Of a stretch of DNA of 5,685 nucleotides, positions 1 to 5,685 are shown piece by piece (the first letter of the stretch is position 1; the number at the start of each line of letters is the position of its first letter). The translations under genes were made by a program, and so were the position numbers. The stretch is from a virus (Duplodnaviria > Heunggongvirae > Uroviricota > Caudoviricetes), in IMG/VR virus record IMGVR_UViG_3300029873_000376, positions 1 through 5,685 of that record. One strand, given 5' to 3'. The notes below the pieces were generated by a model that worked only from the letters and a program-made list of their open reading frames with translations, did not search any database and was not told the DNA's origin.

Positions 1-558
1 ATGAATACAGCTATAACTTTTTCTAACGAGTCACCAAAAGTCTTTTTCAAAGATGGTCGCCTGGTTACCACCTCTCAAGCTGTTGCCGACTACTTCGATA
101 AACAACATAAACACGTTTTAGCTAAGATTGACACACTCGACTGCTCTCCCGAATTTACATCAGCCAACTTTTCGGCCGATGTTCAGACTGTCGAAATTGG
201 CAACGGCGCAGAACGTGAATCACGATGCTACCTGATCACAAAAGACGGCTTCATGTTCCTCGTAATGGGATTTACTGGCAAAAAAGCAGCCAGACTAAAA
301 GAAGCTTACATTGAAAAATTTAACGCAATGGAAGAAGAACTCCACAAACGTCCTCCTGCAGCACAAAACTCCCCCGCCCCAAATAATGGATGCGCATTAC
401 TGATCCACTTCGATAAATACGGTCAGGTCGAGTTCACAGAAAAAGTCCCCGCCGATGCGATGGTATGCACGCTGGAACGGTTTAAATTTTATCTGGAGCA
501 ACATGGGTGGATCGTTGCCCGTAAAGAACAATTGGTGGAAAGGTTGATGCGGTTTTAA
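1..558 (+). CDS. Rha-family phage regulatory protein (185 aa); the ATG sits at window position 1, so the true start could lie upstream
   Basis: ORF 1..558 with stop TAA at 556-558. The N-terminal segment KVFFKDGRLVTTSQAVADYFDKQHKHVLAKIDTL...FTSANFS matches the pattern I recall for the phage Rha N-terminal domain (short beta-strand, then S..VA..F.K.H..VLR.I..L, then nF). The C-terminal half is not recognised. Followed by a hairpin terminator. Confidence 0.75.
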   Translation: MNTAITFSNESPKVFFKDGRLVTTSQAVADYFDKQHKHVLAKIDTLDCSPEFTSANFSADVQTVEIGNGAERESRCYLITKDGFMFLVMGFTGKKAARLKEAYIEKFNAMEEELHKRPPAAQNSPAPNNGCALLIHFDKYGQVEFTEKVPADAMVCTLERFKFYLEQHGWIVARKEQLVERLMRF

Positions 559-567
559 TGAATGCAA

Positions 568-598
568 AACCCCGGATGATCACCGGGGTTAATTTTAT
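568..598. terminator. Hairpin plus T-tract, candidate bidirectional rho-independent terminator downstream of the Rha gene
   Basis: Perfect 8-bp inverted repeat AACCCCGG (568-575) / CCGGGGTT (583-590) around a 7-nt loop, followed by AATTTTAT on the plus strand. On the minus strand the stem is followed by TTTTGCATTCATT. Confidence 0.5.
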
Positions 599-684
599 CG
601 AGCGTGATTGCCGCTAATCGCCATCGCTCTGATTGAGCGTAAATCATTCAGGTTATTCAGTTCTTCCTTCTGCTCTCGCTGACG

Positions 685-855
685 TCAATAAATCCCATCA
701 TTGCGATCAACCTCATCCTTAACCATTGATGCGAGCAGTTCTTCCAGTTTCTGCGCTGACAGCTTTACCTGGTGATCTTCAGCATCTTCCCGGGCTATTG
801 TGGTTCGCGCAGTGGCTGATTTTGCTGACATCACCACAGGGGGCAGACGGACCAT
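685..855 (-). CDS. Hypothetical small protein (about 56 aa from the Met at 853-855); very uncertain
   Basis: The 3' part of the 685..966 minus ORF. The ORF's N-terminal third overlaps the repeat/hairpin at 920-955 and is probably not coding. The internal ATG at 853-855 has GGAGG about 10 nt upstream. No recognisable family; could be non-coding. Confidence 0.2.
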   Translation of the reverse strand: MVRLPPVVMSAKSATARTTIAREDAEDHQVKLSAQKLEELLASMVKDEVDRNDGIY

Positions 856-919
856 TGAACCATGGCCTCCGGAACAAATAAGGGCAAAAATAACAACCAC
901 TATCGAAAGCTCACAAACT

Positions 920-1089
920 AACCGCAGCACGTTCCTGCATACGACGTGTCTGCGGCATAATCCCAATGATTACTCCCTGACAGGATTTGCAGGCCACTCA
1001 ATATCAGGTGCAGTTGATGTATCAACACGATTCAACAATACCCGATATTTATTCCATGCCTCCAGCAACGATCTTTCTTCCTCCGTTGC
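920..1089. repeat. Direct repeat copy 1 (about 170 bp): 3' end of tfa plus downstream palindromic hairpin
   Basis: Manual alignment of 920-1089 with 1970-2138 gives roughly 85-90% identity at an offset of 1049-1050 bp, same orientation. The two tfa stop codons (970-972 and 2019-2021) are in register. Confidence 0.85.
922..955 (-). terminator. Hairpin 15 nt after the tfa-like stop (minus strand), candidate intrinsic terminator
   Basis: CCGCAGCACGT (922-932) pairs with ACGTGTCTGCGG (944-955), with one bulged T. On the minus strand it is followed directly by TTAGTTTGTGAGCTTT. Confidence 0.4.
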
Positions 1090-1239
1090 GATTTCCAGAT
1101 CTACAGCATCCTGCAGTGGCGCAATATACTCACTGAATTCCTGGATGTAGAACTGTGTGGTGACGGTCTTCCAGCCATTCGGCTCCTGCTGTATCGAAGC
1201 ATACCAGGCTATTTCAATATCGCTATGCTGCGGCAGCAT
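970..1239 (-). CDS. tfa: Short tail fibre assembly (Tfa)-like protein, 89 aa: novel N-terminal about 40 aa fused to the conserved Tfa C-terminal segment
   Basis: The C-terminus [51 protein letters not shown] closely matches the lambda Tfa C-terminus as I recall it ([44 protein letters not shown]). AAGGGG sits 4 nt upstream of the ATG at 1237-1239. At 89 aa it is much shorter than canonical Tfa (about 190 aa). Confidence 0.7.
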
Positions 1240-1295
1240 TTAACCCCTTGTAATTCATCGCCATAATTGATTTAATTCACAAATAAAACTATAAC
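1239..1295 (+). promoter_or_regulatory. AT-rich divergent intergenic region with candidate sigma70-like elements for the methyltransferase gene
   Basis: Candidate -10 CATAAT (1262-1267) with a weak -35 TTTAAC (1239-1244, 17-bp spacer). A second pair, TTGATT (1267-1272) and TATAAC (1290-1295), has 17-bp spacing but would put the transcription start inside the annotated start codon. Consensus matching by eye only. Confidence 0.2.
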
Positions 1296-1964
1296 ATGGT
1301 GAAATCAATGAAAAAAAACACAGATGATGGGGCTAAAATTTACACACCACTTACCCTAAAGCTTTATGACTGGTGGGTTTTGGGAGTATCAAATCGGCTT
1401 GCATGGGGATGTCCTACAAAGGAACACCTTCTTCCACACTTTCTGGAACATGTAGGTAACAACCATCTGGATATTGGTGTTGGAACTGGGTTTTACCTTA
1501 CTCACGTACCTGAGAGTAGTCTGATATCTTTAATGGATTTGAACGAAGCTAGCCTGAACGCGGCATCTACAAGGGCTGGGGAATCAAAAATTAAACATAA
1601 AATTAGCCATGATGTTTTTGAACCTTATCCCGCGGCGTTACATGGTCAATTTGATTCCATTTCCATGTTTTACCTTCTTCACTGCCTGCCTGGAAATATA
1701 TCTACAAAAAGCTGTGTAATACGCAATGCGGCGCAGGCCTTAACTGACGATGGAACTCTATACGGAGCCACAATTCTTGGCGATGGAGTTGTGCACAATA
1801 GCTTCGGTCAAAAACTGATGCGCATTTACAATCAGAAAGGCATCTTTTCAAACACAAAAGATTCCGAAGAAGGCTTAACACATATACTCTCAGAGCATTT
1901 CGAGAATGTTAAAACCAAGGTTCAAGGTACTGTAGTAATGTTTTCCGCTTCAGGGAAAAAATAG
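1296..1964 (+). CDS. Class I (Rossmann-fold) SAM-dependent methyltransferase, 222 aa; alternative start at ATG 1308 (218 aa) with GGTGA 5 nt upstream
   Basis: Glycine-rich motif I LDIGVGTGFY, acidic post-I motif LMDLNE, motif II-like DVFEPYPAALHGQFDSISMFYLLHCLP and motif III-like LTDDGTLY. No DPPY/NPPY or PCQ/ENV motifs, so it is probably not a DNA methyltransferase. Visibly AT-richer than the flanks. From memory, the E. coli K-12 DLP12 prophage carries a methyltransferase-like gene (ybcY) between tfa remnants, which resembles this arrangement; not verified here. Confidence 0.85.
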   Translation: MVKSMKKNTDDGAKIYTPLTLKLYDWWVLGVSNRLAWGCPTKEHLLPHFLEHVGNNHLDIGVGTGFYLTHVPESSLISLMDLNEASLNAASTRAGESKIKHKISHDVFEPYPAALHGQFDSISMFYLLHCLPGNISTKSCVIRNAAQALTDDGTLYGATILGDGVVHNSFGQKLMRIYNQKGIFSNTKDSEEGLTHILSEHFENVKTKVQGTVVMFSASGKK

Positions 1965-1969
1965 CATCC

Positions 1970-2138
1970 AACCGCAGCACGTTCTTGCTTAAGACGTGCT
2001 GCGGCATAATCCCAATGATTACTCCCTGACAGGGTTCGTAGGCCACTCAATATCAGGTGCAGTTGATGTATCAACACGGTTCAGCAACACCCGATACTTC
2101 TTCCAGGCTTCCAGCAACGGAGTTTCTTCCTCCGTTGC
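1970..2138. repeat. Direct repeat copy 2 (about 170 bp): tfa 3' remnant plus palindromic hairpin
   Basis: See copy 1. This copy begins 6 nt after the methyltransferase stop codon (TAG, 1962-1964). Confidence 0.85.
1972..2004. terminator. Perfect palindromic hairpin between the convergent methyltransferase gene and the tfa remnant; candidate bidirectional terminator
   Basis: CCGCAGCACGT (1972-1982) and ACGTGCTGCGG (1994-2004) form a perfect 11-bp stem that can extend to about 14 bp with one bulge. On the minus strand a T6 run lies about 10 nt past the stem (TTGGATGCTATTTTTT). There is no T-tract on the plus strand. Confidence 0.4.
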
Positions 2139-2147
2139 ATATACAGC
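2019..2147 (-). pseudogene. tfa: Start-less remnant of a tfa 3' end (42 codons)
   Basis: Minus-strand translation gives [42 protein letters not shown] then stop (TAA at 2019-2021). An in-frame TGA lies immediately upstream (2148-2150) and there is no start codon. It is homologous to the C-terminus of the 970..1239 ORF. Confidence 0.65.
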
Positions 2148-2157
2148 TCACCTTTTT

Positions 2158-2451
2158 TCACCCACGATTAACCAACAGCCAGACCAGCAGACACGCCACC
2201 ACCGGCACAGCAAAATCCATCAGGCTTGCCACATCCCACGCGCGCGGATCAAAACCGCCCCACCACGGCATATTCATTCGCTTGCCATGCCCGAACATTT
2301 CAATCCAGCGATATTCTGCCTGGGTGTGTTCACGCGCAATGAAGAACGTACAACCAGCTATCGCCCCGTAAGCCCAGTTCCCGGTAAAAAGACCAATCAG
2401 TAGCTGCGCAGCCACAGCACAAAGCGCATGAAGGAAAGGTGTTATATCCAT
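2158..2451 (-). CDS. Hypothetical small membrane protein (97 aa, two predicted hydrophobic helices, Trp-rich linker)
   Basis: Consensus SD AGGAGG lies 4 nt upstream of the ATG (2449-2451) and directly follows the stop of the upstream gene. Hydrophobic segments FLHALCAVAAQLLIGLFTGNWAYGAIAGCTFFIA and ASLMDFAVPVVACLLVWLLV flank a charged, Trp-rich loop. No family recognised. Confidence 0.55.
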   Translation of the reverse strand: MDITPFLHALCAVAAQLLIGLFTGNWAYGAIAGCTFFIAREHTQAEYRWIEMFGHGKRMNMPWWGGFDPRAWDVASLMDFAVPVVACLLVWLLVNRG

Positions 2452-2461
2452 TACTCCTCCT

Positions 2462-3166
2462 TTATCCGATATCGCTTCGGGAAACGGATAACAACTTTAA
2501 TTCTGACTCAAGTTCATCAACTCTTTCAGTCAGCTTCTGGATATGGTGAATCAGTGGAACAACCAGACGTTCGTACATTACACCTTCGGCAACAAGGCCA
2601 TTGCTGGAAATAGCTTCCGGTGCATCATCTTCGTTAGCTGGTCGCCAGTGTACAAACTGAGGGGCAATTTCTCCTACTTCCTCGGCAATCAATCCGTAGA
2701 ATCCCCAGTCACGCCTGTCATTTGCGCATTGTGACCTGTACCACACAGGGCGCATCCTGAAAATGAGATCGGCGTGCTCTGAATCTATTGTCTCTACTGA
2801 ATGTTTATAGCGGATAGACGATGTTGACCGCAGCACAGACGAAATTGCGGGGTCAGGATTAAGATAAAGGTTTGCCGCCGCTGTAGTCGTGCCCAATCCC
2901 CACAAATAAAACGCTTCACGGCCAGTCAACGGGTAAAAATCTCCACCATAACGACCGCTTTCCAGAGCGTTCACTTCCAGTTTGTTTTTCAGCTTATTAT
3001 CAACTTCAGTTTTTGTGTATCTGGTGCTGATATCCTGCTTTGCACTGGTCATATCAGCCTGAAGCGTTGATACTTTTCCGTTAATTGAGGAAATATCTTC
3101 CTTGGCTTTACTGACATCTCCCTTTAACGTGGTGATGTCTCCCGGAATTACTGTCGATGTAGCCAT
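2462..3166 (-). CDS. Tail-fibre-like protein (234 aa) with C-terminal intramolecular-chaperone-like (peptidase S74-type) domain
   Basis: GGGAG lies 4 nt upstream of the ATG (3164-3166). Residues about 112-225 (S-S-I-R-Y-K...ETID...LIFRMRPVWY...WGFYGLIAEEVGEIAPQFV...GVMYERLVVPLIHHIQKL...ELESELKLL) fit the pattern I recall for the auto-cleaving C-terminal chaperone domain of endosialidase-type tailspikes and the T5 L-shaped fibre (S-D-x-R-x-K-x-N-I...L-R-P-V-x-Y...G-F-I-A-Q-E-V...P-E...L-I-x-A-I-Q-E-L). The N-terminal 70 aa are coiled-coil-like with two similar segments (LKGDVSKAKEDISS / LQADMTSAKQDIST). Confidence 0.65.
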   Translation of the reverse strand: MATSTVIPGDITTLKGDVSKAKEDISSINGKVSTLQADMTSAKQDISTRYTKTEVDNKLKNKLEVNALESGRYGGDFYPLTGREAFYLWGLGTTTAAANLYLNPDPAISSVLRSTSSIRYKHSVETIDSEHADLIFRMRPVWYRSQCANDRRDWGFYGLIAEEVGEIAPQFVHWRPANEDDAPEAISSNGLVAEGVMYERLVVPLIHHIQKLTERVDELESELKLLSVSRSDIG

Positions 3167-3175
3167 TTGTCTCCC

Positions 3176-3457
3176 TCACATCCAGCCACGAAGTTGATGT
3201 TCAACTACAACCGCGTATTCATCGAATATTGACGATTTTTTTGCATCATTAATGATGCGCACGTTTACAAAATATCCATCTTCCTTAACACATACCGGTT
3301 CGCCATCTTCAGTCAGTTCTCCGGTTTCTTTGTACACGTTACCTATCACGTCAATAAGAATATCATCCTGCATCGACTCGTCATCATAATAGCCAATGCT
3401 ATCCATAAAGGCCGAAAAGTCGGCCCTGTCTGCAAATTTGAGTGTTAAATCTTTCAT
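3176..3457 (-). CDS. Hypothetical acidic protein (93 aa), translationally coupled to stf
   Basis: Its ATG (3455-3457) overlaps the stf stop codon (TAATG). GGGGGAG sits 8 nt upstream, inside the stf 3' end. Rich in Asp/Glu; no family recognised. It occupies the position where tfa normally follows stf. Confidence 0.55.
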   Translation of the reverse strand: MKDLTLKFADRADFSAFMDSIGYYDDESMQDDILIDVIGNVYKETGELTEDGEPVCVKEDGYFVNVRIINDAKKSSIFDEYAVVVEHQLRGWM

Positions 3458-5685
3458 TAGATTGACTCCCCCATCTGAGCATCAGTCAATGCCTTGTGCC
3501 ATATTCTGAAATTCCTGACATGACCAAATAAATGACGCAACCCGGCTGTAGTCTGGCCTCCAATACGGATAATTGCGGAGTTCTGAATATAGGACCATGT
3601 GGCTTTCTTTTCGCTGGATATACGCCCGTTACTTACTGAGCACGTAGACTGATCTGACTTTACACGCATCCCCATAACCATTTTTTCAAGCGATGCGTTT
3701 TCGTTTACCCGTCTGTTAGCCAAACCTATATCACAATAAGGAAATCCGTCGTAATCTGTTGAACGACCGAAGCCAAGAATAATAGCCGCTCCGGTTTGAT
3801 GACCGCCGGTATCAAAAACACGCGGTGCTGCATTTGGCGTTTTATACCAGTTCTTATGTACCTCACAAAGAACCGTAAAAGGAAGATTATAAAGATTATT
3901 CTTAATTGGAACTGTAACTATATCGCTTGCGCGGGTCGCCGCCGTCGCTCCTGATATAATAAAAGATGATACACAAGGCCCATCTTCTACTTGTGGGGTG
4001 GCCAGATAAATATAGTCACCAGATACGGTTGCCCCGCTCTGCTTAGGAGAATACTGTATCTGAGAGCCTATTTTTAACTCCCCATCAATTGCCTGAATTG
4101 TTGCCTCTGCAAAAATCCATCCGGTAGCTTCGTCCTTTCTGACTCTCGCTGTAATTCTTGAGGCAGCACCGCCTGTCATATTAATTTCAAGCGTTTGTGT
4201 ATCAATATACGCATCACCAAGAAAAGTTGTTGCGCTACCGTCATATTTATCAAACCGGATACGCAACCTTACCTGCAGTTCTGTTTTAAAACGACATGAG
4301 GTTGTCACGTGTTTATTATCGCCTGAGACATCAACTGACTTTGTTGCAGCAATTGATGCCATATTAATGGCTGAGGTTTGCCCAATCAGAGAATCGTTGC
4401 AGACAAACTTTCCATAGGTAAAACCAAAATTATCCGTCCCTGTTTCGGGCACATCCATATTTGACGATCGCCCCCAACTGGCAGGGCTTTCCGAATTGAG
4501 CATGTAGTTTGTTCTTTGCCCCTCAATAAGCAGGCCATCACGTTCAAATCGTGGCTCGTCAATGGCAGCCTCTGTCAGCACACCAGATTTGTTAATATAG
4601 GTTGCTTTCGATGCACGTTTAAACTTAACAATCTTGTCGCCAGGCATCGTTATTTCATCGTCACCAATAACAATTTTTTTATATGATGGCGAAAAGCCCG
4701 TAATCATATCCAGCGAATCGTTAAATGGTATCCACACATCAGGCAGCGGCTGTAAGACATATTTATACGGCTCCGCAGCCTGGCTTGCGTACTCTCTGGC
4801 TGCATCTTCGCTTGCTTTAGCTGCCGTCTGGCTTGCTGCCGATGCTTTCGCTGAGTTCGCAGCCGCTGTTTCGCTCACCTTTGCGTTGGTTTCACTGGTT
4901 TTTGCTGCTTTTTGACTGTTAGCTGATGCAGTGGCAGAAGCAGCCGCCGCGCTTGCAGAACTGGCTGCGGCACTCTCGCTTTGGGCCGCTGCATCCTGAC
5001 TGCTTTTCGCCGCAGTTTCACTGGCTTTGGCATTCGTTTCGCTGGTCTTCGCTGCCGCCTGGCTGGACTTTGCGTTAGTTTCACTCGTCTTCGCAGCTTT
5101 CTGGCTGTTAGCCGCAGCAGTTGCTGATCCAGCTGCTGAAGTCGCAGAACCGGCTGCCGCGCTCTCGCTTTGGGCTGCTGCAACCTGGCTGTTTTTTGCT
5201 GCAGTTTCACTGGCTTTAGCATTCGTTTCGCTGGTCTTCGCTGCCGCCTGTGCGCTGTTAGCTGCATTCGTTTCTGAGGTTTTCGCCGCGTTCTTCGATG
5301 ATGCCGCTGCAGTTTCGGATTTCTTTGCCGCCGCTGCGCTCTGAGAGGCGGCTTCAGCGTTGCGTGCCGCTTCTTCCACCATTGCCTCAAAACGACGCAA
5401 TGCCTCCGGCATGACATCATCTTCCGTCATGGCACCGAGAAAATCATTCAGCGTACCTGGTCTGGAACCTTCATAGACGGTAATGGTTCCGGCATGTGAA
5501 GGCGGAAAACCTTCAACAAGCAGGATAACGCTGTACTGGCCATACTCAACATCCATGCTGTAACGCCCGGCTTCATCCGGATTTTCAGAGGCCACCGTGT
5601 TCACCAGTACCGTGGTACTGTTACGTTTTGCTTTCAGCTGGATTGTGCAGTTCTGTACCGGTTTTCCTGTGCCGTCTTTCAGTAC
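3457..5685 (-). CDS. stf: Side tail fibre protein (Stf-like), 5'-partial: the reading frame is open to the window edge
   Basis: The minus-strand frame is open from 5685 (VLKDGTGKPVQNCTIQ...) through the listed Met at 5604. The N-terminus NTVASENPDEAGRYSMDVEYGQYSVIL.V.GFPPSHAGTITVYE...PGTLNDFL matches the lambda Stf / E. coli prophage side tail fibre N-terminus as I recall it. This is followed by an Ala/Ser/Thr-rich repetitive region and a 440-aa C-terminal domain ending ...LFGHVRNFRIWHKALTDAQMGESI. Confidence 0.9.
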   Translation of the reverse strand, partial: VLKDGTGKPVQNCTIQLKAKRNSTTVLVNTVASENPDEAGRYSMDVEYGQYSVILLVEGFPPSHAGTITVYEGSRPGTLNDFLGAMTEDDVMPEALRRFEAMVEEAARNAEAASQSAAAAKKSETAAASSKNAAKTSETNAANSAQAAAKTSETNAKASETAAKNSQVAAAQSESAAAGSATSAAGSATAAANSQKAAKTSETNAKSSQAAAKTSETNAKASETAAKSSQDAAAQSESAAASSASAAAASATASANSQKAAKTSETNAKVSETAAANSAKASAASQTAAKASEDAAREYASQAAEPYKYVLQPLPDVWIPFNDSLDMITGFSPSYKKIVIGDDEITMPGDKIVKFKRASKATYINKSGVLTEAAIDEPRFERDGLLIEGQRTNYMLNSESPASWGRSSNMDVPETGTDNFGFTYGKFVCNDSLIGQTSAINMASIAATKSVDVSGDNKHVTTSCRFKTELQVRLRIRFDKYDGSATTFLGDAYIDTQTLEINMTGGAASRITARVRKDEATGWIFAEATIQAIDGELKIGSQIQYSPKQSGATVSGDYIYLATPQVEDGPCVSSFIISGATAATRASDIVTVPIKNNLYNLPFTVLCEVHKNWYKTPNAAPRVFDTGGHQTGAAIILGFGRSTDYDGFPYCDIGLANRRVNENASLEKMVMGMRVKSDQSTCSVSNGRISSEKKATWSYIQNSAIIRIGGQTTAGLRHLFGHVRNFRIWHKALTDAQMGESI
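4823..5250. repeat. Imperfect tandem repeat, period about 189 bp (63 codons), roughly 2.3 copies, inside the stf shaft region
   Basis: GCAGTTTCACTGGCTTT(A/G)GCATTCGTTTCGCTGGTCTTCGCTGCCGCCTG occurs at 5012 and 5201. The protein units AAKTSETNAKASETAAKNSQ...NSQKAAKTSETNAKSSQ and AAKTSETNAKASETAAKSSQ...NSQKAAKTSETNAKVSE are near-identical. Confidence 0.8.

Follow-up and report, generated by a model that had tools for sequence, protein, structure and literature searches.

A probable two-piece side tail fibre and an unrelated passenger gene downstream of stf at the end of a lambdoid prophage

What has taken the usual place of tfa when the side tail fibre gene stf is followed by three small genes of other kinds? 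The question is raised by the virus record IMGVR_UViG_3300029873_000376, of which we analyzed positions 1 to 5,685; this whole stretch of 5,685 nucleotides (nt) is called the window here. Downstream of stf it carries genes for proteins of 93, 234, and 97 amino acids (aa). A 100% identical stretch is present in the chromosome of Escherichia coli BEC1-S17-ESBL-09, at the right end of a lambdoid prophage at ompW, and the genes of this prophage run in the order tape measure, M/L/K/I homologues, J, lom, stf, and the three small genes, followed by tfa remnants, a methyltransferase gene, Rha, an ash-family gene, and an ompW stub. We consider it reasonably likely that the locus encodes the distal end of a two-piece side tail fibre, together with a passenger gene that is unrelated to it. 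In this arrangement, Stf would attach to the tail by a lambda-type collar, continue as a coiled-coil shaft, and end in a hypervariable lectin-like head.

The stf gene and the three small genes all lie on the minus strand (Table 1). A first-pass annotation, made from the letters alone, had described three tightly packed genes at this place, and direct reading of the sequence agrees with it in coordinates and junctions. Between stf and the 93-aa gene, the stop TAA (3459-3457) and the start ATG (3457-3455) share one base in TAATG (3455-3459). The two junctions that follow read TGA-GGGAGACAA-ATG and TAA-AGGAGGAGTA-ATG, with gaps of 9 and 10 nt, respectively, and every gene is equipped with a start and a Shine-Dalgarno site of its own. 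With a pI of 4.17, the 93-aa protein is acidic; the 97-aa protein is hydrophobic, and three helices are predicted in it with confidence. The same annotation had described the two as an acidic and a membrane protein.

All three genes are under purifying selection, with median pairwise dN/dS values of 0.30 for the 93-aa, 0.17 for the 234-aa, and 0.14 for the 97-aa gene. The genes are full-length, with no pseudogenes among them, across 80 IMG/VR prophage loci that carry the window-type allele of the 93-aa gene; three alleles of the 234-aa gene stop five codons early. The module is also found in the isolated temperate phages PhiR49_1, IdasGreatGrand, and PhiR55_1 and in the isolated phage HannyBb. 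A 1.7-kb region of the locus is covered to at least 80% in 719 of 5426 complete E. coli genomes (about 13%), and the BASEL annotation of the same layout reads lateral tail fibre, hypothetical protein, and 'putative lateral tail fiber chaperone', so that the rarity implied at first pass is not supported. E. coli BL21 (NZ_CP170101, 8118-11363) carries the same 93-, 234-, and 97-aa genes in a Qin-type remnant beside pinQ; there, the stf homologue (annotated as a 648-aa 'phage tail protein') has an IS3 element directly at its 5' end and is probably truncated by it.

Two features of the locus could nevertheless suggest that the three open reading frames (ORFs) are decaying prophage leftovers or the pieces of a single long fibre gene that has been disrupted. 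Remnants of tfa and DUF4376 abound at this end of the prophage, and the whole 234-aa protein aligns to positions 1147-1384 of the 1385-position profile of phrog_3299, which, taken at face value, would mean that the family includes a fibre of great length with the 234-aa sequence at its end. The 59 phage records that match were searched for a long ORF containing this sequence, and none was found. Given that each gene has its own start and Shine-Dalgarno site, is full-length in all loci examined with dN/dS values of 0.14-0.30, and occurs in isolated phages (PhiR49_1, IdasGreatGrand, and HannyBb), and that homologues of the 234-aa protein from six phage lineages begin at the same methionine with the same motif, decaying leftovers and a disrupted gene are both highly improbable. 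The view that the ORFs are separate functional genes has therefore withstood the check for fragments and frameshifts.

The N-terminal part of Stf is of the lambda type. In a Pfam profile search, residues 1-124 match PF08400 phage_tail_N with 211.9 bits, and residues 1-87 match PDB entry 9e7m ('Tail fiber protein') with an E value of 1.6e-46; the gpStf collar domain has been described previously (PMC12617516). An Ala/Ser-rich coiled coil forms the shaft between collar and head. Residues 386-586 of the head are recognized by the NCBIfam model NF048003 GTA_spike_fiber ('phage head spike fiber domain'; 50.7 bits, cut-off 36), and a search of PHROG profiles matched Stf to phrog_1419. The last ~450 aa differ from the lambda tip; they are homologous to the C-terminal module of the lateral tail fibres of PeterMerian, KarlBarth, VogelGryff, IrisVonRoten, and JeffSchatz. 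The version of this domain in IrisVonRoten Gp22 has been called galectin-like (PMC11990801), and the RBPseg atlas reports lectin-like heads in such fibre classes (PMC12143355). Across 53 distinct alleles of the head module, the first ~100 and the last ~30 aa are conserved and the ~320 aa in the middle are hypervariable. This pattern is the signature of a receptor-binding domain placed between recombination linkers, and the head presumably binds a glycan. Together with the Peptidase_S74 domain described below, the phage_tail_N collar and the GTA_spike_fiber-type head speak for the alternative fibre module that had been suspected at first pass.

Within the Ala/Ser-rich shaft, stf contains a 189-nt tandem duplication (4879-5250; 2.0 copies, 83% match). 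The length of the shaft varies between related loci (749 aa here and 790 aa in HannyBb for the whole of Stf), which suggests repeat-mediated variation in fibre length.

The hallmark pairing of Stf with Tfa is absent from the window: no intact Caudo_TAP gene follows stf, and none of the 93-, 234-, and 97-aa proteins matches Caudo_TAP at E ≤ 0.1. What is left of tfa are exactly 42 open codons (2022-2147) with a stop before them, which correspond to the last 28 positions of the Pfam family Caudo_TAP (103-130 of 131), as expected from the start-less 3' remnant already recognized at first pass. RefSeq labels this remnant 'tail fiber assembly protein, incomplete, missing N-terminus', and a similar one follows the 97-aa gene in many related loci with downstream DNA. 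The proposal that a cassette replaced the Tfa-dependent C-terminus of stf together with the 5' part of tfa is upheld.

The 234-aa protein had been noted for a chaperone-like C-terminus, and this region indeed matches Pfam PF13884 Peptidase_S74 (26.6 bits, cut-off 22, residues 116-172, profile positions 1-57 of 58); the protein also matches phrog_3299 and tail-fibre PHROGs. The chaperone region aligns with residues 952-1068 of PDB 8hqz_d ('L-shaped tail fiber assembly'), which we take to be DT57C LtfA (1076 aa), and in this alignment T-S116-S-I-R-Y-K121 (TSSIRYK) stands opposite TSGIEYK. Serine and lysine have a catalytic role in the Peptidase_S74 family, and a serine with a lysine five residues on is kept in all chaperone-bearing homologues that we read (PeterMerian, HannyBb, IrisVonRoten, and VogelGryff). 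Residues 11-46 weakly match the coiled coil of the P22 needle. The first ~17 residues, MATSTVIPGDITTLKGD, recur at Met1 of otherwise differing proteins at the same genomic position: the anchor motif M[AV]TxTVIPxDIxxLK is found in proteins of 231 aa in PeterMerian, 343 aa in HannyBb, 574 aa in IrisVonRoten (Gp24), and 98 aa in KarlBarth, and a looser variant in a 388-aa protein of VogelGryff. A conserved anchor, a variable body, and a self-cleaving chaperone make up a standard modular fibre layout, of which the 234-aa version would be a minimal one.

Read in this way, the 234-aa protein would be a short second fibre. Its first ~17 residues would serve as the docking peptide common to the longer distal fibres, residues ~11-66 would form a trimeric coiled coil, and residues 67-116 a small tip. 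The C-terminal half, as an intramolecular chaperone, should trimerize the protein and then cut itself off after Ser116. Docking on Stf, self-cleavage, and presence in the virion are predictions that we infer from these sequence features.

The distribution of the 234-aa gene agrees with an accessory position on the fibre. All 77 loci that have the window-type 93-aa allele and enough DNA (of 80) contain a distal gene 9-13 nt downstream, which is of the 234-aa or the 343-aa type and is freely combined with any head allele. None of the 48 loci with the phage 21-type 92-aa allele (53% identical) and enough DNA has a distal fibre, and an anchor-type distal fibre is also missing from the rV5-like phage JeffSchatz, although it encodes the head and the small protein. 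Because of these loci, we assign the small protein to the head and regard the distal fibre as an add-on.

The same loci bear on a different explanation, namely that the 234-aa protein is a free-standing chaperone which acts in trans, folds or trimerizes the distal end of Stf instead of Tfa, and is no component of the virion. Such a role would suit a gene in the usual place of tfa whose product consists of a chaperone domain for one half and of a short, moderately conserved sequence for the other, and homologues are labelled 'putative lateral tail fiber chaperone' (BASEL) or 'chaperone of endosialidase'. However, fibres of the phage 21 and rV5 types carry the same head without any such protein, which argues that the head does not need it. 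The anchor is shared with proteins of 343, 388, and 574 aa at the same position that have large pre-chaperone domains, and the 574-aa relative, Gp24, has been modelled as a receptor-binding fibre. Furthermore, known Peptidase_S74 domains work on their own polypeptide. We therefore consider a chaperone acting in trans unlikely and prefer a distal fibre.

The 93-aa protein matches phrog_1361 (E 8e-47) and no family in Pfam, NCBIfam, or PADLOC (the last at E ≤ 0.1). A tblastn search with this protein returned 183 phage records, and among the matches listed the homologue lies at the 3' end of a tail-fibre gene. Its carriers include lambdoids, phage 21, mEp460, Drexlerviridae, Dhillonvirus, Queuovirinae, T5-like phages, and rV5-like myoviruses, and in every locus that we opened the gene overlaps the stop of a fibre with a lectin-type head. 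Because a homologue is present with or without a distal fibre, including all 48 phage 21-type loci and JeffSchatz where no distal fibre follows, the 93-aa protein appears to be a partner of the head and not of the distal fibre. Its AF2 model (pLDDT 81) is an alpha/beta sandwich. We propose that the protein would be made in step with Stf through translational coupling, as a dedicated partner of this head type, and that it is probably an assembly or junction partner of the Stf head. It could either help the head to assemble, replacing Tfa, or be a junction piece retained on the fibre; we give the two options about equal weight.

The alleles of the small protein are strictly split with respect to the distal fibre. 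The window-type allele is always accompanied by one and the phage 21-type allele never, and head alleles mix in both groups; this could reflect linkage or functional dependence. Covariation of the 93-aa protein with the Stf head was considered and rejected, as heads in the IMG/VR prophage loci are 38-100% identical, whereas the 93-aa (91-100%) and 234-aa proteins are both above 91%. The FPYCDIG-containing sub-region of Stf, which phage 21 lacks along with the distal fibre, was likewise dismissed as the docking site, since the motif is missing in 41 of 80 loci with a distal fibre. A literature search that included the RefSeq accessions of the three proteins, the phage 21 locus, and 'LtfC' yielded no mention of the 93-aa and 97-aa families. 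'LtfC' of DT57C was discarded as a relative of either, because it is a collar protein that is encoded upstream and belongs to another family.

Several observations count against a two-piece fibre with a passenger gene. The part of the 234-aa protein that precedes the cleavage site is only 116 aa long, and lambdoid and T1-like phages have rather similar tips (residues 67-116; 57% overall). Receptor-binding tips usually vary more, and such conservation would suit a chaperone or a purely structural piece. The BASEL annotation calls the homologue a putative lateral tail fiber chaperone, the candidate docking motif in Stf did not track the presence of a distal fibre, and the link between 93-aa allele and distal fibre may be plain genetic linkage. 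Fold searches with the AF2 models of the 93-aa and 97-aa proteins gave no informative match, and some homologues of the 97-aa protein lie outside phage contexts.

A two-part fibre of this kind is already known from T1-, T5-, and lambda-like coliphages: BASEL phages carry annotations for it, and a model exists for a T5-like phage. The order of a fibre with this type of head, a protein of 85-93 aa, and a protein with the anchor motif is found in PeterMerian (Drexlerviridae), IrisVonRoten (T5-like), VogelGryff (Queuovirinae), and KarlBarth (Dhillonvirus). IrisVonRoten (Bas32; Gp22, Gp23, and Gp24; PMC11990801) has the same gene order and spacing as the window: Gp22 ends in a homologous lectin/galectin-like module, a 92-aa protein that is 38% identical to the 93-aa protein overlaps the fibre stop, and the next protein has the same N-terminal anchor and a C-terminal intramolecular chaperone. 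In that phage, Gp24 was modelled as a distal T-shaped receptor-binding fibre on the proximal Gp22 (PMC11990801). IrisVonRoten differs from the window in that Gp24 has 574 aa and two predicted receptor-binding domains, compared to 234 aa for the distal piece here, in that its fibre has a T5-type attachment N-terminus instead of a lambda collar, and in that a 97-aa gene is lacking.

The nearest sequence relatives outside prophages are PeterMerian bas05_0029-0031 (PMC8594841) and other loci of Drexlerviridae and Dhillonvirus. Fibre head, small protein, and 231-aa protein of PeterMerian are 54, 48, and 57% identical to their counterparts in the window, the last over nearly its full length, but loci of this type have another fibre N-terminus and no 97-aa gene, and the 231-aa protein carries the label of a putative chaperone, not of a fibre. 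We take Drexlerviridae and Dhillonvirus to be virulent phages. Compared to lambda Stf/Tfa (Ur-lambda; PMC12617516), the window shares the collar domain, the place after J and lom, and the coiled-coil shaft, whereas the receptor-binding C-terminus and Tfa have been replaced, with 42 tfa codons left. In DT57C (LtfA/LtfB) and phiEco32 (gp14/gp15), a second fibre also docks on the first by a short conserved N-terminus and self-cleaving Peptidase_S74 domains are present (PMC4728585, PMC10713586). There, however, the anchor sequence is another one and no small intervening protein is described, whereas the proximal fibre of the window lacks a chaperone domain of its own. Phage 21 (OL657228: CPT_21_22-24) resembles the window in stf (64% identical), in its 92-aa partner (53%), and in its 97-aa membrane protein (96%), but has no distal fibre gene; the 97-aa gene directly follows the 92-aa gene, and sitABCD takes the place of the tfa remnant.

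A consensus terminator or minus-strand promoter was not found inside 1900-3700, and an RNA hairpin just past the tfa stop is more stable than any of 200 shuffled sequences (-30.7 kcal/mol, z -4.8). Based on this hairpin and on the lack of detected internal signals, stf and the three genes are probably expressed as one late transcript; the hairpin would act as a terminator and is the probable end of the late tail-fibre transcription unit.

The view of the three genes as one module, taken at first pass, is not supported, because their distributions differ. The 93-aa gene accompanies the lectin-type head; the 234-aa gene, which alternates with one other distal-fibre allele, is missing in phage 21-type loci; and the 97-aa gene also follows unrelated tail fibres and tailspikes of other phage types. 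The statement that none of the three could be assigned to a characterized family also needs revision: all three belong to PHROG families, and the 234-aa protein has its Peptidase_S74 domain and matches to tail-fibre PHROGs in addition.

The window, HannyBb, and phage 21 have 97-aa proteins that are 96-100% identical, although identity is 64% for stf and 53% for the small protein, and judged from these sequences the 97-aa gene behaves as an independent evolutionary unit. An alignment of homologues revealed the conserved motif AREHTQAEYRWI..FG.GKR.NMPWWGGFD with an invariant polar block; the invariant polar residues are H8, R40, E41, Q44, E46, Y47, and R58. Its AF2 model has a pLDDT of 93. Five basic residues in the loop formed by residues 40-73 suggest, by the positive-inside rule, that the conserved block faces the cytoplasm. 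The protein matched no PADLOC family at E ≤ 0.1 and no family in Pfam or NCBIfam, where a single below-threshold match was attributed to chance. The family phrog_1443 comprises 575 clusters at 90% identity, from Escherichia, Salmonella, Citrobacter, Leclercia, Aeromonas, and Comamonas, and 424 representatives at 50% identity. The 150 of these that were listed are all 58-146 aa long, and domain fusions, sought among them as a clue to function, did not occur.

Of 78 IMG/VR loci, 31 have a gene of the 234-aa type ahead of the 97-aa gene, 22 have one of the 343-aa type, and 19 have the 92-aa gene of the phage 21 type. Homologues are also found after a P2-like tail fibre with Peptidase_S74 in Leclercia, after a P2-like fibre in Aeromonas salmonicida (with a 4-nt overlap), after a pectate-lyase spike in a Citrobacter lambdoid prophage, after a chaperone-bearing spike in the Cobetia phage Carin-5, and between two tailspike genes on a 160-kb Salmonella contig. 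We thus picture the 97-aa protein as a separate, widespread inner-membrane protein whose gene follows the last receptor-binding gene of many phage types. The contexts suggest that it most likely acts on the host envelope, either by excluding incoming phage or by down-modulating a receptor, and on the same grounds we infer that such a role ranks above that of a fibre-maturation factor.

Other homologues stand in different surroundings. On a metagenomic phage contig, the homologue is followed by genes for ~132-aa and ~99-aa proteins and a GH108-type endolysin and so abuts the lysis cassette; a Comamonas prophage has genes of similar size (125, 99, and 183 aa) after the homologue, with no Pfam or endolysin domain on record. 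A lone homologue with 58% identity lies between pirin and RIO1 kinase genes in the Aeromonas rivipollensis chromosome, where no phage genes were found within 6 kb. Two lipid A acyltransferase genes ~1-3 kb away may be a coincidence or a hint of an envelope-related function. Another homologue lies in a toxin-antitoxin/Fic island.

The more specific idea that the 97-aa gene is a moron for lysogenic conversion or superinfection exclusion, with a block at the inner membrane like that of HK97 gp15, T4 Imm, or Cor/Llp, is a serious candidate that we still rate below an even chance. These proteins are known exclusion proteins, and the position of the 97-aa gene resembles that of Cor, Llp, and HK97 gp15-type genes. 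The small membrane protein ends the tail-fibre cluster near the prophage end, it is near-invariant while its neighbours vary, it moves between contexts, and the basic loop residues suggest a conserved motif that faces the cytoplasm. Against an independently expressed moron, the gene looks late-transcribed, with its 10-nt upstream gap and with no minus-strand promoter or terminator of its own detected in 1900-3700; the crude consensus scan leaves room for an embedded promoter. Homologues also occur in large phage records of 154-240 kb, which we take to be virulent phages, and in the Aeromonas chromosome away from phage genes, and the protein has neither a PADLOC match nor homology to any known exclusion protein.

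Alternatively, the 97-aa protein could be a maturation or release factor for receptor-binding proteins, for example in handling self-cleaving fibres or in shutting off glycan-receptor synthesis against trapping of progeny. It directly follows receptor-binding genes in unrelated phage types, often with an overlap or a very short gap, several of these genes carry Peptidase_S74, and its invariant polar residues are enzyme-like. Yet the gene also follows chaperone-less proteins (the phage 21 92-aa protein and pectate-lyase spikes), no domain fusions are seen among the listed representatives, and the membrane is an odd site for an assembly factor of cytoplasmic fibres. Taken together, such a factor is distinctly unlikely, and an envelope-acting protein remains our preferred assignment.

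The DNA beyond the tfa remnant contains further traces of recombination. A direct repeat of ~170 nt (920-1089 and 1970-2138; 91% identical) consists of the tfa 3' end and the downstream hairpin, and the two copies bracket a plus-strand gene for a class I SAM-dependent methyltransferase (1296-1964, 222 aa; phrog_2132, function unknown). The methyltransferase looks like a moron inserted by recombination between tfa ends, and the duplicated remnant with its hairpin fits a role as a recombination linker. At least 10 coliphages, isolated or predicted, share a 771-bp methyltransferase stretch at 99.5-100% identity (among them 2G7b, ev243, and PhiR49_1), and the total of matching records is 17. Further on, 685-966 and 970-1239, both on the minus strand, hold a longer second tfa remnant (89-aa ORF, Caudo_TAP 75-130) and a DUF4376-type fibre remnant with an internal stop flagged by RefSeq. 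Both remain from earlier tail-fibre cassettes that were stacked up here, at the end of the prophage and just ahead of the Rha gene (1-558). The 45-aa 'hypothetical protein' WP_001309429 that RefSeq places at 1909-2046 on the minus strand overlaps the methyltransferase end, the hairpin, and the tfa stop and is probably a spurious call. An invertible segment, considered because an invertase gene lies beside the module in BL21 and HannyBb, was rejected, as a search of 600-2300 revealed no inverted repeats and the window encodes no invertase.

Table 1. Coordinates of the features discussed (positions in the window; residue numbers where indicated).
Feature	Position	Strand	Remarks
stf, proximal side tail fibre	3457..5685	-	first 7 codons outside the window; 749 aa in the source genome
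Stf lambda-type collar domain	about 5314-5685	-	Pfam phage_tail_N
Stf C-terminal lectin-like head module	about 3460-4809	-	NCBIfam GTA_spike_fiber
93-aa acidic protein, phrog_1361	3176..3457	-	start overlaps stf stop by one base
234-aa putative short distal fibre protein	2462..3166	-	Peptidase_S74, phrog_3299
234-aa protein, N-terminal anchor	about 3116-3166	-	motif M[AV]TxTVIPxDIxxLK
234-aa protein, heptad coiled coil	residues 11-46 or further	-	clean heptad pattern
234-aa protein, small tip	residues 67-116		
234-aa protein, intramolecular chaperone domain	2465-2821	-	Peptidase_S74
234-aa protein, putative catalytic codons	Ser116 2819-2821; Lys121 2804-2806	-	
97-aa three-helix membrane protein, phrog_1443	2158..2451	-	phrog_1443 match E 6e-59
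tfa 3' remnant	2019..2147	-	start-less, 42 codons and stop; Caudo_TAP match
Hairpin just past tfa stop	1971..2005	-	RNA fold, -30.7 kcal/mol

The discovery is a modest one, because the architecture had been annotated before and modelled for a T5-like phage; it corrects a likely mis-annotation, in which an apparent distal fibre is called a chaperone, and flags two widespread families of small proteins beside receptor-binding genes. A bolder reading of these families, which is tentative and on balance doubtful, would be that phrog_1361 is the universal junction or assembly protein of lectin-headed lateral fibres in siphoviruses and myoviruses, and phrog_1443 a new inner-membrane effector linked to receptor-binding genes. 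In that case, phrog_1361 would take over from Tfa, though its fold is unrelated, and might control the mounting of a second fibre, and the cytoplasm-facing invariant motif of phrog_1443 could act on a conserved host envelope pathway, such as glycan-receptor synthesis or DNA entry, in temperate and virulent phages. It is the side tail fibres that determine which hosts lambdoid phages, and the engineered delivery particles derived from lambda, can infect or reach. The locus presents a fibre type without Tfa, in which a variable head, a small partner, and a swappable distal piece of 234 or 343 aa are parted by conserved linkers, and for engineers it indicates which genes must move jointly and where chimeras can be joined.

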